From Parcubacteria group bacterium Gr01-1014_29 (GTDB taxonomy: Bacteria; Patescibacteriota; Minisyncoccia; Ryanbacterales; 2-02-FULL-48-12), in assembly GCA_007376195.1 (NCBI GenBank), contig VMFT01000003.1, positions 1 through 57,352 of the forward strand: a DNA stretch of 57,352 bases, given 5' to 3'. This document shows positions 9,152-51,340 of the stretch, one piece after another. Numbering within the stretch: position 1 is the stretch's first letter; each line of letters begins with the position of its first letter. The position numbers and the translations under genes were made by a program. The notes beneath the pieces were generated by a model. That model saw nothing but the letters and a program-made list of their open reading frames with translations. It was not told the origin of the DNA and searched no databases.

Positions 9152-9163
9152 AAACAAACGAGA

Positions 9164-11413
9164 ATGCATAAACTTCTTATTTTAATCAGACAACATTTCC
9201 GAAACCCACTGCTTTTTCTGGCAGTGTTGGCTGTTGTGTTTGTTGCGGCGTTTTCTCCGATCTTTTCACAAAATGTTGACGCGCAGCCACCCCCAACACC
9301 GTCACCAAACACGACGTTTGCCTGCAACACTGCTACTGGATGTAGTACGAATAGGTTTGATACAAGCACCTGTGACAATCAGTGTTTATCAGATGAAACA
9401 TGTATACCATCAAACCAGTGTACAAGTGTCACCAATCCAACAAAGGAAGCGCTTGATGCTGCTGCGAGCGGTGTTGTAACCTGGGCAGTCGAAAAAGTCC
9501 TTGAAGGTATTGTCGAAATCCTGAAATTCATTAACTCCATGCTCGTTAAGCTTGTGGGTGTGTTTGCGCAATTGCTTGACGCGGCAATTGCTCTTTCACT
9601 AGCGGGTTTGGGCGGCATAGAGGCAATAACCATCGGCTGGACTATCACGCGCGATATTGCCAACATCTTCTTTATATTTATTCTTCTTATCATTGCCATC
9701 GCGACCATTTTGCGGCTTGAGCAATACGGCGCAAAACAGCTTTTGCCAAAACTTATCATTATTGCGCTCCTCATTAACTTCAGCTTAGTTATTGCCTTTG
9801 CTGTTGTGGATGCATCTAACGTTTTGGCGCTTGCGTTCATTGGAGAAATTTCTCCTGTGTCAGACAAAATAGCGACAGTTCTTCAAATCAGTAAAATAAA
9901 CACCAAAACTGAACCGCAAGCAGAACACACTGAAATAGACTGGCAATCTGTTACGTCAACAGGTTGGCCCGCAGGAATGGGAATCATCAACCAACCATTT
10001 ACCCTTGATGCTACAATCATAGCGAACGCACCTGTTCAAAACGTATTTAGCGAACAATCCACAGAATTCTTTTGGCAAGCGACAATTCTTATTCTGCTAC
10101 TCACACTTATATTCGTATTTATATCGCTTAGTGTGATGCTGTTAATTCGCAGTGTCGCCTTGATTATTATTTTTGTGCTCGCACCTCTTGGGTTTCTTGC
10201 CGCTATTTTGCCACAAACCCGCGGATATAGCACTCAATGGTGGCAAAAATTGTTTCATTGGGCGTTTTTCTTCCCGGCATCGGCTTTTATGATATACCTT
10301 GCCTTGCAATATGGCGCGCAGATGACACAAATATTCGGTAGCGGGACAGGAAGCCACGTTATAAACACGGGGGTATTATTCAATTACTTTGTCGTTGTGG
10401 CACTCCTCATCGGCTCGCTCATTGTGGCACGCCAAATGGGCATTGCGGGGGCGGCGGCGGCCATAGGCATCGGCGCGGGGCTTGCCCGCAGAGCACGAGG
10501 GTATGCGGGCAAAATGGGCCGCGGGGCCGCGTATTACGGGTATCGCGGGGTAACAGCCCTTCCACGAGCAGGCGCACGAGCGGCCGGCAGGGGAATTGGC
10601 GATTGGGCTGGACGGAAACTTGAAGGTACGGCAGGGACAATACCGATTCTTCGCGGGGGACTTTTGCGTATATCTGAAGCCCGTGAGAAAGCTCTGGCTG
10701 AGGAAATGAAGCGTATGGGCAATCTTTCGGCGCCAGCGCTTGCCAATTTCCAAGGGGGCCTTACGGGAATGAGCTATGAAGCAGGCATACGGACATTTGC
10801 CAAGTTGAGACCCGAAGATCAGCGCCGGTATGCGGACACTATGGGCAAAGACAAGTTTAACAAGTTCGCCGAGGTGGTAGGGCAGCAGCTTGGTGAGCCG
10901 GGCAAGAAACTCGCCGCCAAGGCAACGGGGGACGTGCACGAGGCAATGCGCATTTTGCACCGCAAGCAGTTTGGGGATATGGCGCATGAGCCTGCCGAGG
11001 GCGAGGCCGGGTATGACGCATACCAGCAACAGGCGCATGATTACCTTTCCGGTCTTACAACCAAGGAAATCGGCATGTTGAGTGTCAATACCGTACGGAC
11101 CAGTGATGCGCTCCGCGAATATATATTCAGAAATTCTGAAAACATGAAAGAAATGCTCACCAAACGAGAACACGTTCAAGCGTTTAGTGAGAACATTAAT
11201 GACCATTTGAACAAAAATATAACCCTCATGACTTTAGCCGGTGTCTCACGTAATGATCAAATTGCAAACGAAATAAAAGCAAAAGGCGGCCCCATTACGC
11301 TTGAGACTGCGTTCCGAAGCGGTATCGGGGTTAATGTAGTATTAAACCCAAGCAAAGTTCCCATCGGCACAAAACGCGGTATTGTAACAACCGTAACCGC
11401 GGAAGGAGAATAG
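9164..11413 (+). CDS. VirB6/TrbL-like polytopic membrane protein of T4SS-like locus
   Basis: Signal peptide, Cys-rich extracellular N-domain, then at least 6 hydrophobic helices and an Arg/Gly/Ala-rich cytoplasmic tail. This architecture and its position beside a VirB4 gene are typical of VirB6/TrbL/PrgH analogues. No sequence search was possible. Confidence 0.55.
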   Translation: MHKLLILIRQHFRNPLLFLAVLAVVFVAAFSPIFSQNVDAQPPPTPSPNTTFACNTATGCSTNRFDTSTCDNQCLSDETCIPSNQCTSVTNPTKEALDAAASGVVTWAVEKVLEGIVEILKFINSMLVKLVGVFAQLLDAAIALSLAGLGGIEAITIGWTITRDIANIFFIFILLIIAIATILRLEQYGAKQLLPKLIIIALLINFSLVIAFAVVDASNVLALAFIGEISPVSDKIATVLQISKINTKTEPQAEHTEIDWQSVTSTGWPAGMGIINQPFTLDATIIANAPVQNVFSEQSTEFFWQATILILLLTLIFVFISLSVMLLIRSVALIIIFVLAPLGFLAAILPQTRGYSTQWWQKLFHWAFFFPASAFMIYLALQYGAQMTQIFGSGTGSHVINTGVLFNYFVVVALLIGSLIVARQMGIAGAAAAIGIGAGLARRARGYAGKMGRGAAYYGYRGVTALPRAGARAAGRGIGDWAGRKLEGTAGTIPILRGGLLRISEAREKALAEEMKRMGNLSAPALANFQGGLTGMSYEAGIRTFAKLRPEDQRRYADTMGKDKFNKFAEVVGQQLGEPGKKLAAKATGDVHEAMRILHRKQFGDMAHEPAEGEAGYDAYQQQAHDYLSGLTTKEIGMLSVNTVRTSDALREYIFRNSENMKEMLTKREHVQAFSENINDHLNKNITLMTLAGVSRNDQIANEIKAKGGPITLETAFRSGIGVNVVLNPSKVPIGTKRGIVTTVTAEGE

Positions 11414-11417
11414 ATAT

Positions 11418-11508
11418 GACGCACCTTTCAAGAAAAATATTCTCCGATGGCCTTGAAATAACAGAAAATTGTCGGCCATATAGAACATTTTTTCCTGAAA
11501 GGTGCGTC
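11418..11508. repeat. 91 nt hairpin repeat family B, copy 1
   Basis: It is the reverse complement of 43318-43408 with 6 mismatches by eye, 4 of which are compensatory pairs in the terminal stem. Confidence 0.85.
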
Positions 11509-11538
11509 AAAGGAGTATGTAACTTAAATAACTAACCC

Positions 11539-12645
11539 ATGGACGACACAACAAACAAACAACCAAATGAGATATTCGACCGCCTTGAAAAACTCCCTCC
11601 GGAGTTAAAGGACGTTATGTTTTCAACCGTTACGGCCGAAAAGATGTTTGATATCGGCAAGCGGCACGGCCTTCTGGTGGACAAACTGGGCGACATGGCG
11701 CACGAAACCGGGCTTTTGATGCTTGGCGTAACACACCCTGATGAATTTATCGGCAACCTTGCTTCCCGACTTGAAGTAAACACACAAAAAGCAAACGCGA
11801 TAGCCGACGACATAAACCGCGAAATCTTTGCTCCCGTACGCGAACAGTTACGCGCAGTGTTTGGGGGAACTGCTGGTCAGGGAGAAACACCAACTAATAA
11901 AATCCCTCCCGGCCTCCCTTTTCCAAAGGGAGGAGAGAAATCAATTCCCCTTGAGAAATTAACTCCCCCTTTGGAAAAGGGGGTTATGGGGGATTTGCAA
12001 GGTACTAGCACCAAACCTGAAACAACTTTAGAAGACCTTGAGGCCGAGCTGGAGCACGCTCTTGCCGGACAAGGAGGTGGACAACCATTGAGTGTGGTTA
12101 AAAAACCAGCCAATCTAGGTTACAAAGGCGCTGATCCCTATCGCGAACAAGTTGAGGAGCATATGCCAAATGTACGAGGCGCACCCTATGTGCCGAGCAA
12201 AGAACAAGTAGTAAGTAGTACGTATCAAGGGAAAGAAGAGCCCAAGCCGATCAAAGAAATATCAATAGCAACACCGACACCAAAGTCGGTCGAGGAGCCG
12301 TCCGTGTTTTCGCCTCTATCGCCAAAACCCGCAGAGTCTGCAACAAAAGAACACGACACTCAAAAGGCATCAGGCTTCAAATTTCAAAATTCAACCTCCA
12401 GCAAAAACGATGAAGATGTATTAAAAGAAATCACAGGTGACACAAAAAACGGGTCGCTCCAAGCATTTCGCGGATTTAATATGAATAATAACCGATCGGT
12501 TGAGAACCCGCCGCGCTATGGATTTTCGAAACTGCCTCCGTACAGGGAAAATCCTACTGCAAAACCAACACCGGCAGAGCCAGTGGGAATGCCACAACCC
12601 ATTACTAAAAACCAGAACGATTCATACAGGGAAAAAATTGAGTAG
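11539..12645 (+). CDS. Hypothetical low-complexity protein (T4SS-like locus) containing a translated family A repeat
   Basis: ORF of 368 aa. Residues KIPPGLPFPKGGEKSIPLEKLTPPLEKGVMGDL are encoded by repeat copy 11899-11996. The C-terminal half is Pro/Lys/Ser rich. Confidence 0.5.
   Translation: MDDTTNKQPNEIFDRLEKLPPELKDVMFSTVTAEKMFDIGKRHGLLVDKLGDMAHETGLLMLGVTHPDEFIGNLASRLEVNTQKANAIADDINREIFAPVREQLRAVFGGTAGQGETPTNKIPPGLPFPKGGEKSIPLEKLTPPLEKGVMGDLQGTSTKPETTLEDLEAELEHALAGQGGGQPLSVVKKPANLGYKGADPYREQVEEHMPNVRGAPYVPSKEQVVSSTYQGKEEPKPIKEISIATPTPKSVEEPSVFSPLSPKPAESATKEHDTQKASGFKFQNSTSSKNDEDVLKEITGDTKNGSLQAFRGFNMNNNRSVENPPRYGFSKLPPYRENPTAKPTPAEPVGMPQPITKNQNDSYREKIE
11899..11996. repeat. Palindromic repeat family A, copy 2 (long variant, translated in frame)
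   Basis: AAAATCCCTCCCGGCCTCCCTTTTCCAAAGGGAGGA..(28 nt)..CTCCCCCTTTGGAAAAGGGGGTTATGGGGGATTT. Confidence 0.85.
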
Positions 12646-12852
12646 GTATGCAGCCCCACATCTTTTTTGCAAAACGAATCTATGTATGCTGAAACTTTAA
12701 AATTTACAACCAAATCATGGCAAAGCGCTTCGCCCATTAAGGGTTGCGCTATTCGCGCACGCGCTTTGCGAAGTATGCCATGGCAAAAAATAAGCGGGGC
12801 TGTCATTTTCGCAGCTATATTTTATTCGCTACGCTCTAAAATATAGGCGAAA

Positions 12853-13223
12853 ATGCAGCAGTTTCAAGTGCCGCAATTTATTGAGGTAGAAGACAAAATT
12901 TTTGGGCCGCTTACGACAAAGCAGTTCTTTTATCTTTTGGGCGGGGGGGGAACTCCGCGGCGTATATGTTGAAGCCGCGCTTGTATTTATGGCAAAAATC
13001 CAAAGAACGAAAGGAGGAGGCCCAAGAAGAAGACAAAAAAATCCGCACGGGGCTTATTATCCCGAAAGTTACGCAAAGCAAATTAAACGACTTGGCCTGG
13101 TCGCTTGATATTATGCAGAATGTCAGAAAAAAAGACGAGCGCGCGCCAACCACGGACACTTCGGGCGATTACAAAAACATCATCACAAGCGCGCGTGTAA
13201 GCGGAGGTGAAAACAGAAATTAA
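12853..13223 (+). pseudogene. PrgI/VirB3-like T4SS gene, frameshifted at a G8 run and lacking the usual TM segment
   Basis: Frame 1 gives MQQFQVPQFIEVEDKIFGPLTTKQFFYLLGGGG, then a stop at 12970. Frame 3 continues with PRLYLWQK...IPKVTQSKLNDLAWSLDI, the motifs I recall from PrgI-family proteins. The frames switch at GGGGGGGG 12943-12950. Confidence 0.55.
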
Positions 13224-13331
13224 ATCAGACTGCCAACTGAAAAAAGCAGTTGTGTTGTGTAAATGTGCCGAGCCAAGCTATCCACAATTCCGGTTACACC
13301 GGAATGTGTAGAGCTCGGCTAGTCACATTTT

Positions 13332-14009
13332 ATGGCAAAACCACTTCCCGCACAACAACTTGTTGAAGTTCAGGAAATACGCGACGGTGTGTTGCTATTG
13401 AAAGATGGGTCGCTTCGCGTTGTTTTGATTGCATCGTCCATCAACTTCGCGCTGAAATCGCAAGAAGAACAAGACGCTATAATTTTTCAATACCAAAACT
13501 ACCTTAATTCGCTTGATTTTTCCGTTGAGGCATTTGTGCAATCGCGCCATCTTAACATCGAGCCGTACCTTGAGGTGTTGCGGGAACGCCTCGGACGCGA
13601 ATTTAACGAGCTTATGAAAATACAGATTACCGAATACATAGACTTCGTAAAATCATTTGTGGAAAGCTCTCATATTATGGCGAAGGGCTTTTATGTGGTA
13701 GTGCCATTTACACCCCTGCGTCTGCCCCGGCAGGCAAGCATTCAAAGATCGGTCCTTAAGTTCCTGCCCGACTTGTCCGGCCGCACAAAAAAACAGGCAA
13801 AAGAAATGCGTGAACATGGTGTTACCCAGGAACGGTTTGAAGAATACAAAACCCAGTTATTTCAGCGCGTGGAAGTAACGCGCCAAGGCCTCGGACGCCT
13901 CGGGGTGCGCATTGTGCCGCTTAACACCGAAGAGCTGATAGAACTCTTTTACAGTTTGTACAATCCGGGGGAAATTGAAAAAGGGAAGATACCGGAAGTG
14001 GCAACATAA
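13332..14009 (+). CDS. VirB4/TrsE-type N-terminal domain protein (separate ORF)
   Basis: LVEVQEIRDGVLLLKDGSLRVVLIASSINFALKSQEEQDAIIFQYQNYLNSLDF resembles the N-terminal region of Gram-positive VirB4-like ATPases. It is in the same reading frame as the next ORF, 90 nt away. Confidence 0.6.
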   Translation: MAKPLPAQQLVEVQEIRDGVLLLKDGSLRVVLIASSINFALKSQEEQDAIIFQYQNYLNSLDFSVEAFVQSRHLNIEPYLEVLRERLGREFNELMKIQITEYIDFVKSFVESSHIMAKGFYVVVPFTPLRLPRQASIQRSVLKFLPDLSGRTKKQAKEMREHGVTQERFEEYKTQLFQRVEVTRQGLGRLGVRIVPLNTEELIELFYSLYNPGEIEKGKIPEVAT

Positions 14010-14016
14010 TAGCAAA

Positions 14017-14098
14017 TTAGGCTTTAGGCTCTAGGCTCTAGGTATTAGGAAATACACTTGAGACCTGAAGCCTAGCGCCTAAAAACTAGCGCCTAGCA
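14017..14098. repeat. Heptad-periodic inverted array (TTAGGCT x5 / CCTAGCG-type x5) filling the gap between the two VirB4 ORFs
   Basis: TTAGGCT TTAGGCT CTAGGCT CTAGGTA TTAGGAA - 12 nt - CCTGAAG CCTAGCG CCTAAAA ACTAGCG CCTAGCA, then CA ATG. Confidence 0.85.
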
Positions 14099-14099
14099 C

Positions 14100-15911
14100 A
14101 TGGCTTTCTTATCAAAACTATTTGGTAAAAAACAAGAAGATGGAGAAGGTATCCTTCCGATTTTTCCGCAAGATATTTACTCACACGGCGTTTTAGAACT
14201 GGAAGATGCCATCGCGCCCGCAGCGCTCCAGGTAAACCCATCAAACCTGCGCCTCGGAGAAAAATACACTCGTACACTGTATGTATACGCCTATCCGCGG
14301 TTTTTGGCGACAAGCTGGTTTGCGCCTATCATCAATCTCGATAAAGTGTTTGATATCTCAATTTATATTCATCCGGTTGACACAGCCCTAATTCTGCGCG
14401 ATCTTCGCAAGAAAGTTGCCGAGGTACAATCGCAGATTTCCATACGTGAAGAAAAAGGCCTCGTGCGCGATCCAGTGCTTGATACTGCTTACCAGGATCT
14501 TGAGGCTCTGCGCGACAAACTCCAACAGGCGCAGGAAAAACTCTTTAGCATTGGGCTGTACATCACGCTCTACGGAGACACAGAAAAAGAGCTTACAGAA
14601 ATCGAGACAGAAGTACGTTCTATTCTTGAAGCAAAACTAATCTACGCGAAGCCCGCGCTCTTCCAGCAGCGGGAAGGATTTACCAGCACCCTGCCGCTTC
14701 TGCTTGATAAGCTGGAAGTGCATACCTACATGAACTCGTCCCCGCTTTCAAGTGTGTTTCCGTTTGTATCATTTGACCTCACCTCAAACCGCGGCATACT
14801 CTATGGCATTAATCGCCACAACAACAGCCTTATTTTATTCGACCGCTTTACGCTCGAAAACTACAACACGGTTGTTTTCGCAAAAGCGGGCGCGGGCAAG
14901 TCGTATATGACAAAACTCGAAATCCTGCGTTCGCTTATGTTTGATACTGATGTAATTGTAATAGATCCGGAACGGGAATATGAGTATCTGGCCGAAACCG
15001 TTGGCGGCAGATTCTTTAATATTTCCATCAACTCACACCATCATTTAAATCCCTTTGATCTTCCTTTGCCGCACGAGGATGAGTCGCCCACGGACGTGCT
15101 GCGCTCAAATATCATCAATCTTATTGGCCTCTTCCGGTTGATACTCGGCGGACTCACGCCCGAAGAAGATTCCATCATGGACCGTGCCATTACCGAAGCG
15201 TACGCCGCAAAAGACATTACAGCAGAGGCAGATTTTACGCATATCTCCCCCCCCCTGCTTTCAGACCTGGAGCTGGTGCTCGCGAACATGCAGGGTGGCG
15301 AGACACTGGCATTGCGCCTTAGAAAATACACCGAAGGCACGTGGTCGGGGTTTCTGAACCAACCGACAAATATAAACATCGACAAGCACATGGTGGTATT
15401 CTCGCTGCGCGATATGGAAGAGGAACTTCGTCCCATTGGCATGTATATTGTTACGCATTATATCTGGAATGTTGTGCGGTCTGAACTCAAAAAGCGCATC
15501 CTTATAGTTGATGAGGCCTGGTGGCTGATGAAATCGGAAGATGGCGCATCGTTTCTTTTTGGTCTTACCAAACGCGCCCGCAAATATTTCTTAGGTGTTA
15601 CCACTATTACGCAAGATATCGGCGACTTTATGAACTCGCCCTACGGCAAGCCGATTATCACCAACTCGTCTATTCAGGTACTGTTGAAGCAATCTCCCGC
15701 CACAATTGATATAATGAAAGATGTGTTTAACCTCACCGACGAAGAAAAGTTTCTGCTTTTGGAGTCCGACGTGGGGGAGGGAATTTTCTTCGCGGGGTTG
15801 AAACACGTGGCCATAAAAGTTATCGCCTCCTACACCGAAGACCAGATTATTACATCCGACCCCGAGCAATTATTGGCGATTAAACGGGCGAAAGAAGAAT
15901 TTACACAGTAA
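14100..15911 (+). CDS. virB4: VirB4/TraC-type T4SS ATPase (CagE_TrbE_VirB-like domain + AAA_10-type ATPase)
   Basis: Walker A FAKAGAGKSYMTK, Walker B ILIVDEAWWLM, and YTRTLYVYAYPRFL plus DISIYIHPVD motifs typical of VirB4 middle domains. Confidence 0.85.
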   Translation: MAFLSKLFGKKQEDGEGILPIFPQDIYSHGVLELEDAIAPAALQVNPSNLRLGEKYTRTLYVYAYPRFLATSWFAPIINLDKVFDISIYIHPVDTALILRDLRKKVAEVQSQISIREEKGLVRDPVLDTAYQDLEALRDKLQQAQEKLFSIGLYITLYGDTEKELTEIETEVRSILEAKLIYAKPALFQQREGFTSTLPLLLDKLEVHTYMNSSPLSSVFPFVSFDLTSNRGILYGINRHNNSLILFDRFTLENYNTVVFAKAGAGKSYMTKLEILRSLMFDTDVIVIDPEREYEYLAETVGGRFFNISINSHHHLNPFDLPLPHEDESPTDVLRSNIINLIGLFRLILGGLTPEEDSIMDRAITEAYAAKDITAEADFTHISPPLLSDLELVLANMQGGETLALRLRKYTEGTWSGFLNQPTNINIDKHMVVFSLRDMEEELRPIGMYIVTHYIWNVVRSELKKRILIVDEAWWLMKSEDGASFLFGLTKRARKYFLGVTTITQDIGDFMNSPYGKPIITNSSIQVLLKQSPATIDIMKDVFNLTDEEKFLLLESDVGEGIFFAGLKHVAIKVIASYTEDQIITSDPEQLLAIKRAKEEFTQ

Positions 15912-16029
15912 TACTTTGAATTACGAAACTCCTAAAAATCCCCCTTCATCCCCCTTTTCCAAAGGGGGACATGCGCTCCTCCCTTTGGAAAAGGGAGGTT
16001 GGGAGGGATTTTGTAATTCAAAGAGTAAT
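15908..16029. mobile_element. MITE-like composite: 21 nt terminal inverted repeats enclosing a family A palindrome (copy 3, 15934-16012)
   Basis: Left TIR is GTAATACTTTGAATTACGAAA; its TAA is the virB4 stop. Right TIR is TTTTGTAATTCAAAGAGTAAT, ending 4 nt before the next ATG. The same TIR type bounds 43287-43452. Confidence 0.7.
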
Positions 16030-16033
16030 AAGT

Positions 16034-16564
16034 ATGCCTGAAGAAACAACCGAACAACAATACCAAGCCGAACTGTTGCGCGAGCGACAGCGTGAGCAGC
16101 AGATGAATATTGAAGAGGCGGAACGCGAAATGGAGCTTGCGGAAACGGAGGATCTTTCCCAAACCCAAGCCGCTGGACAAGCAAAAGCGCCTAGGAACAC
16201 ATTTCCTCTATCAGCCATTGCGGTAGGTCTTTGGTTGTTTCCCGCCGCAGCTTTGGATATGTTTGAGTTTTTTGGGCAGGTATTGGCCGCGATTCCGTTT
16301 ATCGGGTTGCCGCTCGCTGGGGCAAGCAGTATTGTTGGGGCAATTTTTAGTGGTATAATGGTTTTGATAGTCGGGTTCTGGCTTCTTATGAAAGGTGTAA
16401 CTCCTTTCTCACCGAGCGGCATCCGGATATTTCTTGTTTTGGGGGCAACCGCGTTTGGCAATGCCATTGTAAACTGGCTGCCGGCGTGGAGTGGATTCTT
16501 TTTGTGGCTTTTCTTTATGGCCCACGCGCGAGAAGCGCTTTTCTTAAATAAATTTAAAAAATGA
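16034..16564 (+). CDS. Hypothetical 4-TM membrane protein (T4SS-like locus)
   Basis: Acidic N-terminus followed by four hydrophobic helices. The start is moved to the ATG at 16034 because the upstream part of the ORF is repeat-derived. Confidence 0.55.
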   Translation: MPEETTEQQYQAELLRERQREQQMNIEEAEREMELAETEDLSQTQAAGQAKAPRNTFPLSAIAVGLWLFPAAALDMFEFFGQVLAAIPFIGLPLAGASSIVGAIFSGIMVLIVGFWLLMKGVTPFSPSGIRIFLVLGATAFGNAIVNWLPAWSGFFLWLFFMAHAREALFLNKFKK

Positions 16565-17583
16565 ATACCACACACAAAACTGGAAACAAAACACACTCGG
16601 TTGTTTTTACTATTTTGTTACACATCCTCGTTGTTATATTTTTTCTTGCCGGACTGCGCGTTTACGGACAAGTCAATGAACCGAAAATAGAATTTGTTTT
16701 GAATCCTACCTATCCGCATGCTTATGAATTCACCAGTGTCACGATACGTTCCTTTAGTTTTGATACCCAAAGCGCGCTATTTTCATGGTCAATTAATGGA
16801 AAACCTGCCAGTACTGGAAGAGGAGTAAAAAGTGCCAGTTTCACCACAGGCCCTCTAGGATCAAAAACCGCCGTTTCTGTAATTATTGTCCCTTTCGAAG
16901 GTATGAAGATAAAAAAAACCATTGACGTATATGCCTCAGACCTTGATATTCTCTGGACAGCATCATCATATACACCACCATTTTATAGAGGGAAATCATT
17001 GCCTACCCGAGGGTCTACCGTTACATTCGTCGCCTCGCCATTCTTTGAAAGCGCCCAAACAGGAAAAGAAACAGATTTCTTGTTTGAATGGAATGTTGAC
17101 GGAAAAGAAATGCGCCAACAATCCGGATACGGCGCTCGTGTGTTTTCTCTCAATATCGGAAGAAACTCAAACACAGAATATCGTATTCAAGCGCGAGTTA
17201 CCAACCCCGCAACAAACGCAACACAAACAAAAAGCTTTTCTTTACCTATATATGATCCCGCATTACTGTTTTACGAACTCCACCCACTGCAGGGTCCGCT
17301 CACCGGACGCGCCATTTCCGACCGACGTGCCATCGCGCCGGATAGTGAAATACAAGTGCTTGCGGTACCGTACTACGCATCACAACCCCCAGCAGCGCTT
17401 GATTTTGGGTGGAAGGTAGAAAACACTGATATCGCGCGGGGAGAAAAAGGAGAGCGCGCCGATGTGTTAACGTATCACGCCGAGCAGGGAAGCAGGGGGC
17501 AACAAATTGTTTCCCTTAGCATTTTGAATCCATTCAATATATTAGAACGCATACAAGAATCATTTCGCATATATGTGGAATAA
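16561..17583 (+). CDS. Membrane-anchored hypothetical protein with three internal beta-rich repeats
   Basis: N-terminal TM. The signature recurs three times: ALFSWSINGKPASTGRG / FLFEWNVDGKEMRQQSG / LDFGWKVENTDIARGEKG. There is a 4 nt overlap with the previous gene. Confidence 0.55.
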   Translation: MNTTHKTGNKTHSVVFTILLHILVVIFFLAGLRVYGQVNEPKIEFVLNPTYPHAYEFTSVTIRSFSFDTQSALFSWSINGKPASTGRGVKSASFTTGPLGSKTAVSVIIVPFEGMKIKKTIDVYASDLDILWTASSYTPPFYRGKSLPTRGSTVTFVASPFFESAQTGKETDFLFEWNVDGKEMRQQSGYGARVFSLNIGRNSNTEYRIQARVTNPATNATQTKSFSLPIYDPALLFYELHPLQGPLTGRAISDRRAIAPDSEIQVLAVPYYASQPPAALDFGWKVENTDIARGEKGERADVLTYHAEQGSRGQQIVSLSILNPFNILERIQESFRIYVE

Positions 17584-18097
17584 AAAACATTTTGCGCTGG
17601 CGCTGTTGCTCCTTATTGCTCTATGTGCGTTTGGAACGGCGGATGCCGCGCGTTACAACCTTCTTGCGCCGCTGCCGGGAGGAGACGCGTCGGTTGATGC
17701 GACATCGGGAGGATTTCAAACCTACATGGCACAGCTTTTCTGGTTTATTTTGTGGGGAGCAATCATACTCGCGCTTGTTATGTTTGTCATCGGGGGGGTG
17801 GAATATGTGGGGTCGGCCGGAAACACGAGCCTGCTTCAAGACGCGAAAGGACGCATCACAAACGCGCTGTTAGGCCTGGTTCTCGCGCTTGCCGCTTGGC
17901 TTATCTTATACACCATAAATCCTGATTTGGTAATTTTTGAACTACCCATTGAGCCGATTACACTGCCAATCAGTGGCAATCAAAAGGCTACCACTGACGG
18001 AGAACCGCCTCCAATACCACCGCCGCTACCACCGCCACCTAATACAGGAGGCCCCCAGCCACCACCACCTCCGCCTCCACCACCATTAGGTAATTAA
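17573..18097 (+). CDS. VirB2/TrbC-like T4SS pilin with Pro-rich C-terminal tail
   Basis: Signal peptide ending TADA. Two hydrophobic helices (LFWFILWGAIILALVMFVIGGVEYV; ALLGLVLALAAWLILYTINP) match the CPR-type T4SS pilin layout as I recall it. The tail is PPPIPPPLPPPPNTGGPQPPPPPPPPP. Confidence 0.65.
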   Translation: MWNKKHFALALLLLIALCAFGTADAARYNLLAPLPGGDASVDATSGGFQTYMAQLFWFILWGAIILALVMFVIGGVEYVGSAGNTSLLQDAKGRITNALLGLVLALAAWLILYTINPDLVIFELPIEPITLPISGNQKATTDGEPPPIPPPLPPPPNTGGPQPPPPPPPPPLGN

Positions 18098-18126
18098 ACC
18101 CAATCAGTACATAACACAACCCATAT

Positions 18127-19323
18127 ATGACCATTCGAGGCAGAGAAATTAAACGTTCGCATATTCTCATCGGCAGCGCCGTTCTTGTTGGTATTGCCAT
18201 TATATTGTTCTTTTTATTACGCGGAGGAGATACAACAGGTGGGAGTGCCGGAGAAGATGATGGTTCGTTCTTTGGGTTTCTCTTCGGCGGCTCTTCTGTG
18301 TCACCAAAACCTCTCGATAATACTGCCACCGGAGACGACACCGAACAACCGGAGCAATACTTGTTTCGGATAACAAACGAACCTGTGGCAGGCGCTACCA
18401 TCTCGTCCGACGGCACATCGTTGCGATATTTCAAAAAAACAACCGGTCATTTGTTTGAAAACTCGTTCACCGGAGACAAGGAACAACGTATCTCCAATAT
18501 AACTACTTTAGCTATTCTTAACGCTCAGTGGACCCCCTCAAAAGAATACGCAATCATCAGTTATTACACGAATGGCGCCGTGCGCCGCTTTTACTCCCAC
18601 TACAGCGGAACGTCCACCATAACATCCGCAGTTCTCCCAAATGATATTATTGACATCACCACATCAAAAACAGATGAAAAAATAGCCTATCTCGTCTCTT
18701 CCGGCGCCGAGACTATGTTGCTTACCGCGAATCCTGATAATACCGGCATCAAGAATGTTTTTTCAACACCCTTTCCTGACTTTGAGCTTTCCTGGCCGGT
18801 GACAAACCGCATCGGCCTCAAAACACGAAGCTCCGCATACGCGCCGAGTGTTCTCTATACTCTCAACCCTTCCACCAAACAGCTCACGCGCGTACTCGAC
18901 GAAAAAGAAGGTCTTGATGTATTGTGGTCGCCCGATGGCACTGGTTTTCTCTCTATGAAAACAAGCCGCGAAGGCACGAATGTGGCGCTTCGTGTGGTAT
19001 CCTTACAAGACAACACGGCAGTAGATTTTCCTTTTGTAACGCTTCCGGAAAAATGTGTCTGGGCGCCATCAAAAGAGCGGGTGCTCTATTGCGCTATTCC
19101 CCAACAAATTCCAAGCGGCACACATGTACCCGATGAGTGGTGGCAGGGAAGCGTGTCATTTGATGACGCCCTCTGGCGCATATATGTTGACACGGGTATA
19201 CGCCAACAACTTCTGTCGGCTTACCAGCTTGACGCAATCAACCTTTTTACAGACAAAGAAGAATCGTTTCTTTTCTTCTCAAACAAAAAAGACGGGCTCT
19301 TGTGGAGCCTCCGCCTTCGTTAG
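18127..19323 (+). CDS. Membrane-anchored hypothetical protein, TolB/WD40-like beta-propeller
   Basis: N-terminal TM, then repeated beta-strand-rich segments including VLWSPDGTGFLS. It is the last gene of the co-directional locus. Confidence 0.5.
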   Translation: MTIRGREIKRSHILIGSAVLVGIAIILFFLLRGGDTTGGSAGEDDGSFFGFLFGGSSVSPKPLDNTATGDDTEQPEQYLFRITNEPVAGATISSDGTSLRYFKKTTGHLFENSFTGDKEQRISNITTLAILNAQWTPSKEYAIISYYTNGAVRRFYSHYSGTSTITSAVLPNDIIDITTSKTDEKIAYLVSSGAETMLLTANPDNTGIKNVFSTPFPDFELSWPVTNRIGLKTRSSAYAPSVLYTLNPSTKQLTRVLDEKEGLDVLWSPDGTGFLSMKTSREGTNVALRVVSLQDNTAVDFPFVTLPEKCVWAPSKERVLYCAIPQQIPSGTHVPDEWWQGSVSFDDALWRIYVDTGIRQQLLSAYQLDAINLFTDKEESFLFFSNKKDGLLWSLRLR

Positions 19324-19417
19324 GCATTAGGCGCTAGGCTGTAGGCACTAGGAGTTAGAATTTAGAGAAAGAAAATTTTTTCTAAAGCCTAATGCCTAGT
19401 TTTCCTAGAGCCTAAAC
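19321..19417. repeat. Heptad-periodic inverted array (TAGGCNN x7 / CCTANNN x4) between convergent genes
   Basis: TAGGCAT TAGGCGC TAGGCTG TAGGCAC TAGGAGT TAGAATT TAGAGAA ... CCTAATG CCTAGTT .. CCTAGAG CCTAAAC. The first TAG is the stop of 18127..19323, and a CTA in the last units is the stop of jag. Confidence 0.85.
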
Positions 19418-19885
19418 AACTGGTTTTATCACCACCCTGCGATTTTCGCCTTCGCCAATGCTTTCTGTTGCCACATCAGGGTCGCCTGTCAGTGTTATGT
19501 GAACAATACGCCGCTCATACCCGCTCATCGGCTGCATAACAACTTCTTTCTTGAAATACCGCACGCGCTGGGCGCTCATGCGCGCACGCTCGCGGAGGTC
19601 CTCAACACACTTGCGCTGGTAGTCATTTACATCAATAACAAATGGTGAAAAGCCGCTTGTGTTTTTTTTCTCTATAATGCGCTTCAAAATAGTTTGAAGC
19701 GCGTATAAATGTTTGCCATTCTCCCCAATAAGCAGGTTGCTATCAGGTGTTCGTATGTGAAGACACGGCGTCTCTAATATCTCCGTTTCCTCAATAGACG
19801 CCTCAATACACATGAGTTGGAGTATCTTTTTTAGGGTAGTACACGCATCATTGAATGGTGTTTGTTGTTGTATTGGTTGGTTCAT
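19412..19885 (-). CDS. jag: Jag-like KH/R3H RNA-binding protein
   Basis: LIGENGKHLYALQTIL (KH-like) and GYERRIVHITL (R3H). It sits downstream of yidC, as in the conserved rnpA-yidC-jag cluster. Confidence 0.8.
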   Translation of the reverse strand: MNQPIQQQTPFNDACTTLKKILQLMCIEASIEETEILETPCLHIRTPDSNLLIGENGKHLYALQTILKRIIEKKNTSGFSPFVIDVNDYQRKCVEDLRERARMSAQRVRYFKKEVVMQPMSGYERRIVHITLTGDPDVATESIGEGENRRVVIKPVV

Positions 19886-22826: not shown

Positions 22827-23068
22827 AAATAATCGGTGTATATCGTAGGTATAAGGATGGAATAACATGGTACTAAAAGGGGATATGACGCCGACTTACA
22901 AAAACAAGTACATCAATCCACACATATTCACCACTATTTTTCCAATATATATCAACAATAAGAGTGTCAAAAAACGATTAGCTGACAATAAAAACAACCG
23001 TTTATCCACATATCCACACATATTACTACTACTATAAATGTATTGTATATAAAATAATTATTGTAATA
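22827..23068. other. Probable oriC (dnaA-dnaN intergenic, AT-rich, DnaA boxes)
   Basis: TTATCCACA (23002-23010) is followed immediately by TATCCACAC. CAATCCACA lies at about 22914. AT-rich tracts lie nearby. Confidence 0.6.
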
Positions 23069-24169
23069 ATGAAATTTATCGTACTAAAAGAAAATTTATG
23101 TGAGGGAGTTCTGCTTGCGGAAAAAAGTACCGGAAAAAAAACCACACTTCCCATATTATCATCCATTCTGTGCTCCGCCCAGAATGGTAAAATACTACTT
23201 GTGGGCACTAATTTAGAAACAGCGGTTGAGGTGTGGGTGGGTGGCAAAATCGAACGCGAAGGTAGCATTGCGATTCCAGCGCGTGTGTTGAGTTCTTATA
23301 TATCTCTGGTGGGCGGTGATCAGATTACTCTCTCAAGCCGGGGAGAAAACCTTGAGGTATCTTCTGATAAAGGAAAAACTATCATTCGAGGCTGTTCCAC
23401 GAATGATTTTCCACTTGTTCCGCGTCAGGAAGAAATCAGTAGATTTACACTGCCTGCCGGATCTCTGCGTGACGCACTGCGTCGTGTGGTATTTGCGGTG
23501 TCGGTGTCGGATATACGACCCGAACTTGCCAGTATTTTCTTTTCCATTACACCAACAACCACCATCATAGCCGCTACTGATAGTTTTCGTCTTGCCGAGC
23601 AAAAAATACAAGGAACTTTTGGTGAAAAAGGATGGTCGCAAGTATTTTTGCTCCCCGCAAAAAGCGCTAACGATCTCGCGCGTCTCCTTGAGCGGGAAGA
23701 GGAGAACGTGCTCGTGTCTCTCGGTAAGGGGCAGATTGTGTTTTCCACAAAACGGTTTCGTCTCACATCACGTCTTACGGAAGGTTCTTTTCCAGATTAT
23801 AAACAGATTGTTCCGGCTGTATTTTGCACAGAGTTTAATTTGCCAAAAGATGTAATTATGGACACATTGCGTGTTACGGGATTGTTTGTAAGCAAGCTGC
23901 ATGATGTGATATTTCATGTGCAACCATCACAAAAGCGCGTTGAAGTTCGCTCAGCAAACGCTGATGTTGGGGAGAATATAGCCTCTCTGCCGGCGACAAT
24001 ACAAGGATCAGAATTACAAATTAGTTTTAATTACCGCTATATTATGGATGGACTTGGGCAGGTTGAGGGTGATGTTGTTTTTGGTTTTACTTCCGCCTCT
24101 GGTCCATTGATGATACGCACAAGGGATGATACTTCTTATTTCTATGTTGTTATGCCGATGAAAGTATGA
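23069..24169 (+). CDS. dnaN: DNA polymerase III beta sliding clamp
   Basis: 366 aa, three-domain clamp length, MKFIVLKENL start, immediately downstream of dnaA. Confidence 0.9.
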   Translation: MKFIVLKENLCEGVLLAEKSTGKKTTLPILSSILCSAQNGKILLVGTNLETAVEVWVGGKIEREGSIAIPARVLSSYISLVGGDQITLSSRGENLEVSSDKGKTIIRGCSTNDFPLVPRQEEISRFTLPAGSLRDALRRVVFAVSVSDIRPELASIFFSITPTTTIIAATDSFRLAEQKIQGTFGEKGWSQVFLLPAKSANDLARLLEREEENVLVSLGKGQIVFSTKRFRLTSRLTEGSFPDYKQIVPAVFCTEFNLPKDVIMDTLRVTGLFVSKLHDVIFHVQPSQKRVEVRSANADVGENIASLPATIQGSELQISFNYRYIMDGLGQVEGDVVFGFTSASGPLMIRTRDDTSYFYVVMPMKV

Positions 24170-28942: not shown

Positions 28943-29491
28943 TTACACTTTGATATTTACATTTTGCATTGTGTTTGTGTACACCTCTTGTATGTCTTCA
29001 TGTTCTTCTAAAACTTCTGCCAGCTCGTCAATTTTCTTCCGTGTCTCATCGTCAACCGGTACTGTTGTTTTTGCTATCCATTCTTCTCCCTCTTTTACAA
29101 ATGCCCACAGCGCCCCTCCCGGGGCCATTTTTGCGCCATGAGTCTCGAGAACTGTTCGTATTTGGGCGAATGTCCGATTATTGTTGTCGGTACTGCCTTC
29201 AATAACAAGCGCCACTCCCCCGGGTCCGTATGCCTCATACGTAACGCGCATAAGTGTGTTTTCAGGAGATGTTGCTTTGGTGATGGCGCGATCAATGGTG
29301 TCTTTCGGCATGTTTACCGCCTGCGCGTTTTCTATCGCAGTGCGCAGTGTCGGATTGAGGCCGGGATCCTGACCTTTTTCACGCGCAGCAAGCGTTATAG
29401 CGTGCGAAAGTTGCGAAAAAGTCTTGCTGCGCTTTGCATCGGTTGCCCCTTTTTTGTGTTTAATTTGAGACCATTTTGAATGTCCTGACAT
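28943..29491 (-). CDS. YebC/PmpR family DNA-binding transcriptional regulator (short)
   Basis: MSGHSKWSQIKHKKGATDAKRSKTF...NMPKDTIDRAI is the YebC N-terminal signature. Confidence 0.88.
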   Translation of the reverse strand: MSGHSKWSQIKHKKGATDAKRSKTFSQLSHAITLAAREKGQDPGLNPTLRTAIENAQAVNMPKDTIDRAITKATSPENTLMRVTYEAYGPGGVALVIEGSTDNNNRTFAQIRTVLETHGAKMAPGGALWAFVKEGEEWIAKTTVPVDDETRKKIDELAEVLEEHEDIQEVYTNTMQNVNIKV

Positions 29492-43712: not shown

Positions 43713-43783
43713 AACCATAATACACTAGCACATGTTTTTTTGAAGGGCAAGCGCATGAAAAACAATCAATCGACGCATAGCCC

Positions 43784-43874
43784 ATGATGAATTATGAATC
43801 AAGAATTATGAATTATGGGAAAAAAATACAAGGAAATTTCTTTGCATGATTCTTAATTCATACTTCATAATTCA
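43784..43874. repeat. Heptad-periodic inverted array (ATGAATT-type / TAATTCA-type) between uvrB and rpsT
   Basis: ATGAATT ATGAATC AAGAATT ATGAATT ATGGGAA ... TGATTCT TAATTCA TACTTCA TAATTCA. The last five codons and the stop of uvrB lie in the right arm. Confidence 0.8.
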
Positions 43875-46862: not shown

Positions 46863-46897
46863 CCTAATGCCTAGAGCCTAATATCTAGCGCCTAACA
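46863..46897. repeat. Heptad-periodic array CCTAATG CCTAGAG CCTAATA TCTAGCG CCTAACA ending 1 nt before the ruvA ATG
   Basis: Read directly. The unit type matches the right arms at 14064-14098 and 19388-19417. Confidence 0.8.
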
Positions 46898-47483: not shown

Positions 47484-48701
47484 ATGCTACAAAATTTGAG
47501 ACAACTTATTCCTCGGGGTGTTTTTATGTTCCTACAACCTCTCTATCATCGCTTTCTTGCTTTGCTGGCCGCCGTTGTATACCGATTTCCTTCGCGGCAG
47601 CTTACGATTATTGGGGTTACAGGCACCAACGGCAAATCCACGACAGTTGAGATGCTTGCCGAAATTATTGAAGAGGCGGGGTATCGTGTTGCATCGGTTT
47701 CTTCCATTCGCTTTCGCATGGTTGACCACGAAAAACCAAACGATCGCAAAATGACCATGCCCGGCCGGTTTTTTCTGCAAAAGTTTTTGCGGCAGGCAGT
47801 GAGCGCTGGCTGTACGCATGCGGTGCTGGAAGTTACTTCGGAAGGCATTAAACAATTTCGGCACGCGCATATAAAATTTGACGTAGCAGTAATTACCAAT
47901 ATTACACCCGAACATATTGAGTCGCACGGGTCATTTTCAGCATACCGCACGGCAAAAGCAGAACTATTTCGCGCCGCCCCCGTCCATGTGCTCAACAAAG
48001 ACGATCGAGAGTCCTATACGCATCTTTCTGGAATTCCCGCAGAAAAACGCTATGAATACGAATGGGCTCGGTTTCCGAAAGATCTCGAGCTACATTTGCC
48101 GGGTGATTTTAATCGGGCTAATGCACTGGCTGCTCTTACTGCCGCCAAAGCTATTGGTATTCCTTACGAAGTGAGCAAGCGCGTGCTCGAACGCATTGAT
48201 TATATTCCCGGGCGGCTTGAGGTTATTCAAACGCATCCTTTTGGCGTTGTGGTTGACTACGCGCATACGCCCGACGCTTTAGAGAAAGTGTATAAAGAGC
48301 TTTCCGCGCCGCGTCTTATTTGCGTGTTGGGTGCGGCGGGCGGCGGTAGAGACACATGGAAGCGTCCTGAGATGGGACGCATTGCCGAGGCATACTGCTC
48401 CGTGGTTATTCTTACCAATGAGGACCCGTATGACGAAAAGCCGGAAAAAATTATAGAAGAAATTTTTTCCGGCTTTTCGCAAATTCCAAATTCCAAATTC
48501 CAAATTCCAAACACAAGGAAGGTGATTGATAGGCGGGAAGCCATCCACGAGGCGCTTTCGCTTGCTAAAAAGGGTGACGTGGTTATTATTACCGGCAAGG
48601 GATGCGAATCGTGGATGATGGGGCCGGGCGGCTCGAAGATGCCTTGGGATGATAGGGAAGTGGTGCGAGAGGAAATTCAAAAGTTGAATCACGAAGAATG
48701 A
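47484..48701 (+). CDS. murE: MurE-type Mur ligase (UDP-N-acetylmuramoyl-tripeptide synthetase-like, no N-terminal domain)
   Basis: P-loop GVTGTNGKSTT, VVDYAHTPDALEKVY and TNEDPYDE motifs, GKGCE near the C-terminus. It contains a repeat-encoded QIPNSKFQIPNT. Confidence 0.75.
   Translation: MLQNLRQLIPRGVFMFLQPLYHRFLALLAAVVYRFPSRQLTIIGVTGTNGKSTTVEMLAEIIEEAGYRVASVSSIRFRMVDHEKPNDRKMTMPGRFFLQKFLRQAVSAGCTHAVLEVTSEGIKQFRHAHIKFDVAVITNITPEHIESHGSFSAYRTAKAELFRAAPVHVLNKDDRESYTHLSGIPAEKRYEYEWARFPKDLELHLPGDFNRANALAALTAAKAIGIPYEVSKRVLERIDYIPGRLEVIQTHPFGVVVDYAHTPDALEKVYKELSAPRLICVLGAAGGGRDTWKRPEMGRIAEAYCSVVILTNEDPYDEKPEKIIEEIFSGFSQIPNSKFQIPNTRKVIDRREAIHEALSLAKKGDVVIITGKGCESWMMGPGGSKMPWDDREVVREEIQKLNHEE
48478..48508 (+). 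repeat. Heptad tandem repeat CAAATTC x3 (+CAAACAC) inside the Mur ligase coding sequence
   Basis: Read directly. It is stop-free in all six frames. Confidence 0.85.
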
Positions 48702-48716
48702 ATTATGAATCATGCT
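48690..48716 (+). repeat. Heptad array TTGAATC ACGAAGA ATGAATT ATGAATC ATGCTAT spanning the murE stop and the next start
   Basis: The TGA stop of 47484..48701 and the ATG of 48705..49175 both come from ATGAATN units. Confidence 0.7.
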
Positions 48717-49764: not shown

Positions 49765-49810
49765 ATATGGCTCGTTTTATGTTTCATTGTTTTATGTTAT
49801 AACGAAGTTT

Positions 49811-50883: not shown

Positions 50884-50977
50884 TTTGAGTATTTAGTAAT
50901 TAGTATTTAGTACTTAAGGCTAGGTAGAATTATAATACTTGAAGCAAAAATTTATCCCTAAGTACTAATTACTCAAA
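50884..50977. repeat. Heptad-periodic inverted repeat (TTAGTAN units) upstream of the four-helix-bundle gene
   Basis: Left arm is TTTGAGTATTTAGTAATTAGTATTTAGTACTTAAGG and right arm is CCCTAAGTACTAATTACTCAAA. TAG/TAA recur at 7 nt spacing at 50894, 50901, 50908 and 50915. Confidence 0.8.
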
Positions 50978-50992
50978 CTCACACTAATTACC

Positions 50993-51340
50993 ATGTTTGA
51001 TTTTGAAAACTTAAAGGTGTACCACGACGCAAAGGAGCTTAACAAGAAAATTTTGTGTTTTGTGAAAGACAATAAACACATTGACTCGTATCTCCGCGAC
51101 CAATTGCGCAGAGCTTCCATAAGTATGGTTATCAATATCGCAGAAGGAAGTGGTAAATTTTCAAAAGCTGACAAAAGAAATTTCTATACGATCTCTAGGG
51201 GTTCTGTGTATGAATGTGTTTCTATTTTTGATATCATTCATGATGAGCAACAGGTAAGCAATGAAGAGTATAAAAATTTCTATCAGCGATACGAAACAAT
51301 CTCCAAAATGCTACTCGGGTTAATTAACTCTCAAAAATAA
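50993..51340 (+). CDS. Four-helix-bundle protein (23S rRNA intervening-sequence protein / Avd-like family)
   Basis: FENLKVYHDAKEL...LRDQLRRASISMVINIAEGSGKFSKADKRNFYTISRGSVYEC is the family signature (TIGR02436-type, by recall). Confidence 0.8.
   Translation: MFDFENLKVYHDAKELNKKILCFVKDNKHIDSYLRDQLRRASISMVINIAEGSGKFSKADKRNFYTISRGSVYECVSIFDIIHDEQQVSNEEYKNFYQRYETISKMLLGLINSQK

Follow-up and report, generated by a model that had tools for sequence, protein, structure and literature searches.

What kind of element fills the gap between two convergent genes at positions 19321–19417 of contig VMFT01000003.1, a 57,352-nucleotide stretch of Parcubacteria group bacterium Gr01-1014_29? The spacer consists of tandem 7-nt units followed by units of the same type in inverted orientation, and a sequence-only reading of this stretch (hereafter the window, meaning the whole 57 kb) had taken such arrays to be designed for stop codons in all frames of both strands. 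We arrive at a different description: on balance, 19321–19417 is best regarded as a stem-loop devoid of an open reading frame (ORF) that resembles the intervening sequences (IVSs) of rRNA genes, probably forming an RNA structure of the RNase III type.

A heptamer hairpin fills the spacer between two convergent genes

The element is a long imperfect palindrome occupying the entire spacer, with the following layout.

19321..19369, plus strand: left arm of the heptamer hairpin, TAGGCAT TAGGCGC TAGGCTG TAGGCAC TAGGAGT TAGAATT TAGAGAA
19370..19382: A/T-rich apex and loop, AGAAAATTTTTTC, with the innermost helix UUUAGAGAAA/UUUUUCUAAA in the minimum-free-energy structure
19383..19417, plus strand: right arm of inverted GCCTA-type units, TAAAGCC, TAATGCC, TAGTTTTCC, TAGAGCC, TAAAC
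18127..19323, plus strand: gene of 398 aa, the last of a type IV secretion system-like (T4SS-like) cluster, convergent with jag; synteny in loci L212–L215
19412..19885, minus strand: jag/KhpB-like gene with KH and R3H domains; the last array unit contains its stop
19285..19309, minus strand: small GC-rich hairpin GGCTCCACAAGAGCC followed by a T-run, intrinsic-terminator-like for jag by consensus match only

The left-arm units carry TAG in 7/7 cases, G4 in 5/7 and C5 in 4/7, and Tandem Repeats Finder (TRF) counts 4.6 strict copies where seven degenerate units can be read; the loop measures ~13 nt. The first array unit supplies the stop of gene 18127–19323 (TAG at 19321–19323), whose protein has no Pfam match, and the minus-strand stop of jag is the reverse complement of the CTA at 19412–19414, confirming the units, the inverted arm and both gene stops as they had first been described. 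Folding of 19315–19425 yielded −40.5 kcal/mol, corresponding to z scores of −4.8 for the plus and −5.0 for the minus strand when energies are compared with dinucleotide shuffles, as for the other hairpins of the window. The proposed pairing of the arms into a bulged hairpin is therefore borne out, with a long stem. The terminator-like hairpin at 19285–19309 lies just past the heptamer hairpin, within the 3' end of gene 18127–19323.

To compare intergenic with coding DNA we used a crude gene map, by which 91% of the window is coding. Intergenic self-match at lag 7 amounted to 0.2895, against 0.2631 ± 0.0062 in dinucleotide shuffles (z 4.24), as the sequence-only reading had expected, and lags 14 and 21 were likewise raised (z 4.64 and 3.02). 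The intergenic lags 5, 6, 8, 9 and 10 all remained below z 0.9, and the lag-7 signal was absent from the coding DNA of the window. TRF returned period 7 as the commonest period of the window (15 of 53 rows); among arrays with at least three copies it accounted for 12, every other period for at most 3. Furthermore, TAGGCNNTAGGC occurs 12 times at up to one mismatch where 2.1 occurrences are expected. The independent assemblies Logan SRR8863434 and ENA ERZ27284376 contain arrays identical to those of the window, which rules out an assembly artefact. The heptamer arrays and their period are non-random. Period 7 is also dominant in the loci of the Candidate Phyla Radiation (CPR) that we collected (21 arrays, next period 11), whereas it is not dominant in the non-CPR loci.

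S23p genes lie between heptamer arrays

The S23p family (PF05635) is the protein encoded within certain rRNA IVSs. In Coxiella burnetii, the IVS with S23p is closed by a terminal stem of 28 bp, which is cleaved in vitro by RNase III with the 5' cut at the first repeat, and GACAGAT heptamers, two or three in tandem depending on the strain, stand immediately before the S23p ATG (PMC4990558). This Coxiella case was the single one found in a literature search for a general link between S23p and heptamers. By tblastn and hidden Markov model searches over the collected loci we identified S23p genes in L020, L100, L155, L173 and L201, each flanked on either side by heptamer arrays, in most cases as inverted pairs. 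The cassettes considered here are the following.

L214, 11603–12053: S23p cassette with heptamer arms
L155, 900–1404: S23p cassette with heptamer arms
L201, 8400–8960: S23p cassette with heptamer arms
L173, 8340–8760: S23p cassette with heptamer arms
L100, 600–1250: S23p cassette with arrays in the flanks
L020, 12700–13150: S23p cassette with arrays in the flanks
Plasmid loci L216–L229: S23p cassettes with arrays in the flanks

The L155 cassette reads TAGGCRG x6, ORF, CTGCCTA x5. A tblastn search of 72,556 plasmids added 28 S23p records, mainly from Nostoc, Calothrix, Trichormus and Anabaena, the classical organisms of the short tandemly repeated repetitive (STRR) sequences. We examined 14 of these plasmid genes and found arrays visible on both sides in 14/14. 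Most are heptamers in inverted pairs: Nostoc punctiforme, for example, has TCAGGAG x8 / CTCCTGA, N. edaphicum has TAGGGAG x8 / TCCCTAC x4 and Anabaena 90 has ACAGGTG / TGTCACC; the array of Calothrix PCC 7716 (L216) is weak. The Azospirillum plasmid case (L222) is a true 23S rRNA IVS with the arms CAGAGGA/CGGAGGA. The cassettes of cyanobacterial plasmids often lie between genes of an operon, namely cas10–cmr3, cas6–cas4 (twice) and two ribonucleotide reductase subunits.

Pooling the 70-nt flanks of the S23p genes gave a lag-7 self-match of 0.477, compared with ~0.33 for lags 6 and 8 and 0.257 for control segments. Scored uniformly, 15 of 20 independent S23p genes reached a lag-7 local score of at least 8 in a flank, the scores at lags 6 and 8 being 3–5. 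The duplex energy of the flanks was at z ≤ −2 in 16/22 against a mononucleotide null, which is a crude one. In Xanthomonas, GGGAATC repeat #15 overlaps the start codon of XCC0516 (PMC4692102, supplementary table). Arrays bracketing S23p were thus seen in every lineage sampled: cyanobacteria, Bacteroidota, Alpha- and Gammaproteobacteria, CPR and uncultured high-GC bacteria. Based on these comparisons, heptamer arrays are associated with S23p genes across phyla.

The cassette of L173 (S23p at 8363–8725) lies inside a long ORF (7317–9890) whose flanks resemble an N6 DNA methyltransferase (...NLHGIDIDPRAVQIA...), and it may have inserted, in the manner of an IVS, into a protein-coding gene.

One hairpin family recurs with and without an S23p gene

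The sequence-only reading had listed six further sites of the same design. All six exist and three of them form hairpins, whereas the arrays at 29502, 46863 and 48690 are solitary, with neither an inverted partner nor a significant fold. The three additional hairpins and the S23p gene of the window are as follows.

14017..14098, plus strand: second TAGGC-type hairpin, with left arm ~14017–14051, loop ~14052–14063 and right arm ~14064–14098
43784..43874, plus strand: ATGAATT/AATTCAT heptamer hairpin between uvrB and rpsT
50884..50977, plus strand: TAGTAnn heptamer hairpin, 15 nt upstream of the S23p gene
50993..51340, plus strand: S23p (PF05635) gene, E 4e-26; PDB relative 2GSC, which is Xanthomonas XCC0516

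Together with 19321, these sites constitute four long bulged hairpins with ~30–40 nt per arm and z scores of −3.2 to −5.0 (14010–14105, −4.8; 43780–43880, −4.2 and −3.2; 50880–50985, −3.6). Unit counts per arm pair are 7 + ~5, 5 + 5 and 4.4 + 4.3. The 14017 hairpin occupies the spacer between a TraC-like gene (13332–14009) and a VirB4-like gene (14100–15911), its array stopping 1 nt short of the ATG at 14100. At 43784–43874, the right arm contains the stop and last codons of uvrB (43858–45828, minus strand), the other neighbour being rpsT (43449–43718, minus strand). The arrays are degenerate, with a conserved core of 4–5 nt and a variable spacer in each unit, and at least six unrelated unit sequences occur within the 57 kb.

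A cyanobacterial origin of the window was rejected, given the absence of HIP1 and protein relatives that belong to the Patescibacteria. DnaA finds its best relatives in Patescibacteria metagenome-assembled genomes (MAGs) at ≤54% identity, MurE (47484–48701) reaches 73–78% to Parcubacteria and Ryanbacteria proteins, and Jag has matches of ≤65%. The junction between the TraC-like and VirB4-like genes was found in three states: an empty one with a spacer of 2 nt (L213) or 14 nt (L212), one holding an S23p cassette (L214) and one holding the ORF-less TAGGC hairpin of the window. The L214 cassette comprises a 128-aa PF05635 gene lying between GAATTAT-type and AATTCAT-type units.

Its arms match the 43784–43874 hairpin of the window at 94% over 34 nt, and the same hairpin matches an ORF-less one in L088 (12243–12278) at 94% over 36 nt. 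L088 belongs to the same MAG as L214, and the right arm of its hairpin closely matches the 3' arm of the L214 cassette. An irregular third unit and the flanking TTCCC are common to all three elements. In L214 the shared ATGAATT stretch covers the last codons and TAA of the S23p ORF, the other arm covering its ATGG..AAAAAA start. Likewise, the array at 48685 matches the left arm of an ORF-less hairpin in L214 (4880–4965) at 96% over 27 nt. Since the same genomes share merely 75% (MurE) and 57% (Jag) protein identity, the 94–96% identity of the arms argues that the ATGAATT-armed elements are one dispersed family, with and without an ORF. One hairpin family of the window, ATGAATT, is thus homologous to the arms of an S23p cassette. 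Heptamer units are also shared among genomes more often than expected (9 duplicate unit classes versus 2.0 ± 1.3 in the null), three of the nine being hairpin partners; near-neighbour unit classes are not enriched (22 versus 32), and taken alone this sharing is weak evidence.

The spacer between the last gene of the T4SS-like cluster and jag is syntenic in four relatives (L212–L215), and a hairpin is present in all five genomes including the window. It is a heptamer hairpin of TAGGCnn units in the window, of ATGAAnC units in L212 and of AAATKCA units in L214, a short plain hairpin in L213 and a perfect 15-bp palindrome in L215. The comparison of orthologous spacers that had been suggested thus returns a hairpin in every relative, with an unrelated sequence or a different heptamer unit in each. 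What is conserved here is a stem-loop between convergent genes, the heptamer version being lineage-specific. The TAG stop of the window falls at the codon position matching that of L213 (...CTCCGCCTGAAGTAGGTGT), from which the TAGGCnn unit may have been seeded out of a stop-codon context.

Around murE, L082 contains dense heptamer hairpins of other units (CTGAAAC/AGGTTTC, AAAGTGC/AACTTTG, AAGTAAA/TTTACTT) and L088 contains some, with z scores of −2.9 to −7.0 in these two loci, whereas L084/85 and L086/87 show none in this region. One conserved hairpin is orthologous, window 50865–50992 corresponding to L082 13455–13581 with one compensatory pair.

A short direct repeat covaries at that site, being GCAAAAATTT twice in the window (50865–50884 and 50945–50960) and GTGGAAATTTT twice in L082 (13455–13478 and 13535–13550). 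Its first copy, near the hairpin upstream of S23p, is part of a small extra hairpin.

An IVS-like reading of the element

These data suggest that stem-loops with heptamer arms and the intervening sequences of rRNA are elements of one kind. Full-length copies would carry the S23p ORF in their loop, and copies such as 19321–19417 would be miniature or solo forms lacking it. The elements would spread or arise in transcribed spacers and then change fast by 7-nt slippage, the arms staying roughly balanced. At the RNA level the stem would measure at least 30 bp and be of the type that RNase III excises from rRNA IVSs; such a stem would act as a processing or 3'-end structure and would delimit or shield the 3' ends of both convergent messages. 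The parts of this reading differ in strength. Membership of 19321–19417 in the heptanucleotide-repeat class is very probable. Its kinship with IVS/S23p cassettes is an evenly balanced matter. That the element is itself a substrate of RNase III, by analogy with the rRNA IVSs, we propose only tentatively.

Several observations weigh against the IVS-like reading. The S23p survey covered few genes, some of them from loci selected for their TAGGC arrays. Within it, at least one gene (Pseudanabaena, L219) has direct instead of inverted arrays, and Picosynechococcus (L218) and Gemmatirosa (L223, Gemmatimonadota) have arrays of an 8-nt period. The TAGGC hairpin at 19321 shows only unit-level similarity to the S23p cassettes of L155, L201, L173 and L100, and no shared irregularities tie it to an ORF-bearing copy. 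Moreover, the S23p gene of the window is not bracketed by arms, a complete hairpin lying upstream of it. Arm sequences differ widely between copies, unlike the inverted repeats recognised by transposases, and comparing the 14017 junction with the empty sites of L212 and L213 reveals no target-site duplication; the uvrB–rpsT spacers have diverged too far for such a comparison. No transposase, REP-associated tyrosine transposase (RAYT, PF01797-type), ribbon-helix-helix (RHH) protein or reverse transcriptase was found among the ~51 ORFs scanned in the 57-kb window. Array copy number is the same in all three assemblies, which may sample one population. Finally, with a hairpin in the jag spacer of all five genomes, in-situ slippage growth of an ancestral terminator-type hairpin explains this site without a mobile element.

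A broader form of this idea is that bacterial heptamer arrays are largely the arms of one widespread, IVS-like selfish cassette family, which we consider conceivable, if rather speculative. In its full-length form, a stem with heptamer arms would hold the gene for the four-helix bundle S23p (PF05635) in its loop, and the cassette would insert wherever cutting of the RNA is harmless, as in rRNA hairpin loops, operon spacers and gaps between cas genes. RNase III would remove or process the cassettes at the RNA level, many ORF-less miniatures would be left, and S23p would make, maintain or move the 7-periodic arms. If the bracketing of S23p by heptamer arrays and the homology of an ORF-less hairpin to cassette arms prove true genome-wide, they would link the prokaryotic excess of 7-nt repeats (open since 2007), the nature of the STRR sequences (since 1990) and the role of IVS/S23p, and the three puzzles would become testable in Nostoc or Xanthomonas.

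Relation to described repeat classes

Heptanucleotides are the most abundant long simple-sequence repeats (SSRs) in most prokaryotic genomes and have been proposed to reflect a slippage bias set by the polymerase footprint (Mrazek 2007, as cited in PMC4679880 and PMC4692102), and the STRR sequences of Calothrix date to 1990 (Mazel 1990, as cited in PMC4692102). Hairpins of 7-bp STRR units between genes are common in filamentous cyanobacteria, where roles in transcript stability, translational coupling and termination have been suggested (PMC2670836). Xanthomonas has 70–75 convergent pairs of GGGAATC arrays, mostly transcribed, of which 83% retain their gene context from one species to another, with variable length (PMC4692102). 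The arrays of the window share with this class the tandem 7-nt units in mostly 3–8 copies, the intergenic location at many loci per genome, the frequent convergent pairs and a site type that is kept as length and sequence vary. At least three head-to-tail 7-nt copies and an intergenic over-representation of period 7 are both found in the window. They differ in their CPR host, in their units (TAGGCnn, ATGAATn, TAGTAnn) and in being degenerate, the classical repeats being near-perfect. STRR1 CCCCAGT, STRR2 TTGGTCA, STRR3 CAACAGT, GGGAATC and GGGGATT do not occur in tandem in the window, and the highly iterated palindrome HIP1 is absent from it.

That no class of natural all-frame stop arrays had been described does not hold, as the forward TAACTGA heptamers of Beggiatoaceae, Cyanobacteria and Bacteroidetes were noted in 2015 to place stops in all three frames (MacGregor 2015, PMC4679880). 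These repeats overlap upstream stops, and the commonest class of them terminates 1 nt short of a start codon that usually lacks a Shine-Dalgarno motif; CspB binds heptamer repeats at one protein per unit (PMC4679880). Published heptamer repeats, inverted pairs and three-frame stops together mean that the class is already described, its all-frame-stop property included. The window shows the three-frame stops, the overlap with upstream stops and the scarcity of Shine-Dalgarno motifs, and its arrays ending at 14098 and 46897 keep the same 1-nt distance from a start codon. TAACTGA repeats have a single unit and are nearly always direct, one indirect repeat having been reported, whereas the window contains several families with the inverted pair as the main form; TAACTGA itself is present in five single copies, none in tandem.

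A further parallel lies in the rRNA IVSs with S23p of Coxiella, Leptospira and Azospirillum, which likewise have terminal inverted repeats, a long imperfect stem and heptamer arms. In these IVSs the S23p start codon abuts the array, copy number differs between Coxiella strains, and short ORF-less forms are known in rRNA. The likeness extends to an ORF-bearing homologous cassette for the ATGAATT hairpins of the window. Unlike rRNA IVSs, which occupy the loop of 23S helix 9, 25 or 45 or lie in 16S rRNA, the elements of the window are situated in mRNA spacers between protein genes and not in rRNA helices: Rfam detects no rRNA in the window, only one tRNA, and nothing at the arrays. The loop of 19321–19417 contains no S23p ORF, and an ORF-bearing homologue (L214) was found only for the ATGAATT family.

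MITEs (miniature inverted-repeat transposable elements), repetitive extragenic palindromes (REPs) and bacterial interspersed mosaic elements (BIMEs) are also short, palindromic, dispersed and intergenic, sometimes derive from a longer ORF-bearing element and can act as RNA hairpins at gene ends. The arms in the window are instead internally 7-periodic, differ between copies and lack a conserved terminal sequence; the TAGGC copies share only the unit and some irregular units. The earlier suggestion of MITE arms gains real support in part: the ATGAATT-armed hairpins form a family dispersed over several genomes, some members having an S23p ORF and others none. No transposase was found in the window and no target-site duplication at the 14017 junction, the ORF-bearing relative encoding S23p and not a transposase.

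With heptamer repeats, inverted pairs and all-frame stops all published, the finding as first written is an ordinary one. No paper on heptamer repeats in CPR bacteria was found in the literature searched, nor any mention there of their prominence in Parcubacteria, where they fill spacers from stop codon to start codon. The association of S23p with heptamers is the part worth following up.

Solitary arrays and the stop codons

Further arrays of the window lack a hairpin partner or are weak.

46863..46897, plus strand: single GCCTA-type array (period 7/14) whose end is 1 nt from the start codon of ruvA (ATG at 46899)
48685..48716, plus strand: single TGAATnA array spanning the last five codons and TGA stop of murE, a 3-nt spacer and the spoU start codon
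29502..29529, plus strand: single TAGTAAC array holding the stop of gene 29516–30067 (minus strand)
48480..48511, plus strand: perfect CAAATTC x4.6 array inside murE, in frame, encoding SQIPNSKFQIPN
49774..49798, plus strand: weak GTTTTAT array in the spacer and start codon of gene 49787–50386

The 46863 array matches the right arm of the 14017 hairpin unit by unit (83% identity), the spoU start codon at 48705 lies within its array, and the 29502 array ends 10 nt before the start of yebC (28943–29491, minus strand). In murE the 48480 array falls in a loop that is variable among MurE homologues, L088 having a degenerate counterpart, NSNFQITN.

Is the wealth of stop codons more than a consequence of the period? 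We took all TRF period-7 arrays with at least three copies, placed each consensus unit in tandem, scored stops on either strand and used every permutation of the unit's own letters as the null. Stop-bearing units numbered 10/11 in the window (8.8 expected), 26/29 in CPR relatives (25.1 expected) and 34/43 in all other loci (34.2 expected), and dinucleotide-shuffled sites of ~90 nt already had 5.8 of 6 frames closed. The claim that the arrays are designed for all-frame stops is thus not upheld. The seven sites originally listed hold 103 stops versus 92.4 in shuffles and close 39/42 frames versus 35.0, a modest excess that applies to a set picked for its stops. Two clean arrays (48480 and 35458) are free of stops on both strands, and the one inside murE shows that the 7-nt process operates even where a stop could not be tolerated. 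TAGGCNN x4 was matched in at least 120 metagenomic contigs with GC contents of 0.32 to 0.71, and among the matches listed 36 of 41 core mismatches fell on TAG and 5 on GC, counting only internal units not forced by the search pattern. As the mismatches concentrate there, TAG is not the protected part of the core. Gene stops do fall inside arrays, as had been noted for 19321 (5/51, including both convergent genes at 19321), which is a necessary consequence of a stop-bearing array abutting an ORF. All-frame stops on both strands follow from the palindrome, from base composition and from a 7-nt period, which three does not divide, and we regard the stops as a by-product with considerable confidence.

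Weighing the alternatives

The main rival to the IVS-like reading is plain in-situ slippage, in which 7-nt microsatellites set by the polymerase footprint expand in any spacer that tolerates them and pre-existing terminator hairpins grow symmetrically. The arrays would then be unrelated to IVS and S23p elements and would have no role beyond that of the ancestral hairpin. This reading suits the jag spacer well, where relatives have different units or plain hairpins at one orthologous site and the TAG position shared with L213 could have seeded the unit; it also accords with the absence of arrays from some close relatives, with the perfect in-frame array in murE and with TAGGCnn arrays being very common in metagenomes of all GC contents. 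However, it leaves unexplained the S23p genes between heptamer arrays in many phyla, the 94–96% arm identity and shared irregular units of genomes so diverged in Jag and MurE, and the empty, ORF-bearing and ORF-less states of one junction; nor are conserved cores with variable 2-nt spacers expected from neutral decay. We judge it possible though rather doubtful. A bidirectional intrinsic terminator, with the heptamers as mere building material, would suit the position between convergent genes, the hairpin in all five jag spacers and the strong fold on both strands. Yet no U-tract follows the heptamer stems on either strand, jag has the separate GC hairpin and T-run just beyond, matches in intrinsic-terminator and promoter scans were not enriched over shuffles, and other heptamer hairpins are found within operons of co-directional genes, right against the following start codon, which makes this explanation unlikely.

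The conserved core and variable spacer would also be compatible with heptad arrays bound by a protein, be it an omega-type ribbon-helix-helix repressor or centromere protein, which recognises 7-bp heptads in both direct and inverted orientation, a single-strand binder of the Csp/S1 type or S23p itself: three units make 21 bp, i.e. two helical turns, CspB occupies heptamers one per unit, and S23p is a toroidal pentamer always beside such arrays. One binder per unit is implausible given the six or more unrelated units in 57 kb; in addition, no RHH or other candidate gene lies next to the arrays, the omega heptad WATCACW never occurs in tandem in the window, and arrays stand at gene ends as often as at promoters. 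We hold protein binding to be highly unlikely. Designed stop arrays that insulate neighbouring genes from translational read-through could draw on the gene stops in arrays, two of them in the 19321 element, on a TAG kept in every left-arm unit while the remaining core decays toward the apex, and on the seven-site excess. Against this stand the unbiased set at its letter-permuted expectation, the near-complete closure of frames in shuffled spacers, the stop-free arrays, one of them translated, the poor conservation of TAG in the listed metagenomic arrays and the stop in an abutting array as a logical consequence already present in PMC4679880. Such a design is most improbable.

Further observations in the window

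An alternative reading of ORF 47484–48701 as a RuvB extended through the stop-free array was rejected; the ORF is MurE and the array an in-frame loop segment. Between uvrB and ruvA, which are adjacent in L086 and L088, the window has an inserted ParE-like toxin gene together with a probable small antitoxin ORF (46301–46558 and 46559–46860), the GCCTA array at 46863 lying at the edge of this insertion. A Shine-Dalgarno-like motif precedes only 8/51 genes of the window, and with several start codons inside or 1 nt after heptamer arrays, initiation is probably independent of this motif.

The T4SS-like cluster (6858–19323) includes TrbL/VirB6-like (9164–11413), TraC-like (13332–14009), VirB4-like (14100–15911) and pilin-like (17573–18097) genes. 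It directly adjoins jag–yidC–rnpA and dnaA–dnaN, the region of the replication origin, and this order is kept in the four Parcubacteria contigs L212–L215. Between dnaA and dnaN, an 18-nt A/T-rich tandem repeat, AAATTATTGTATATAAAA x3.3 at 23036–23096, is a possible origin unwinding element. Another dispersed element, ~60 nt long, is located at 3640–3700, 15930–15990 and 33615–33696 (minus strand), with a partial copy at 11920–11990. It reads AAAATCCCCCTTnATCCCCCTTTTyCAAAGGGGGA...CTCCTCCCTTTGrAAAAGG, and ATCCCCCTT occurs six times versus 0.37 expected; one copy lies inside a ksgA-like ORF (3397–4191).

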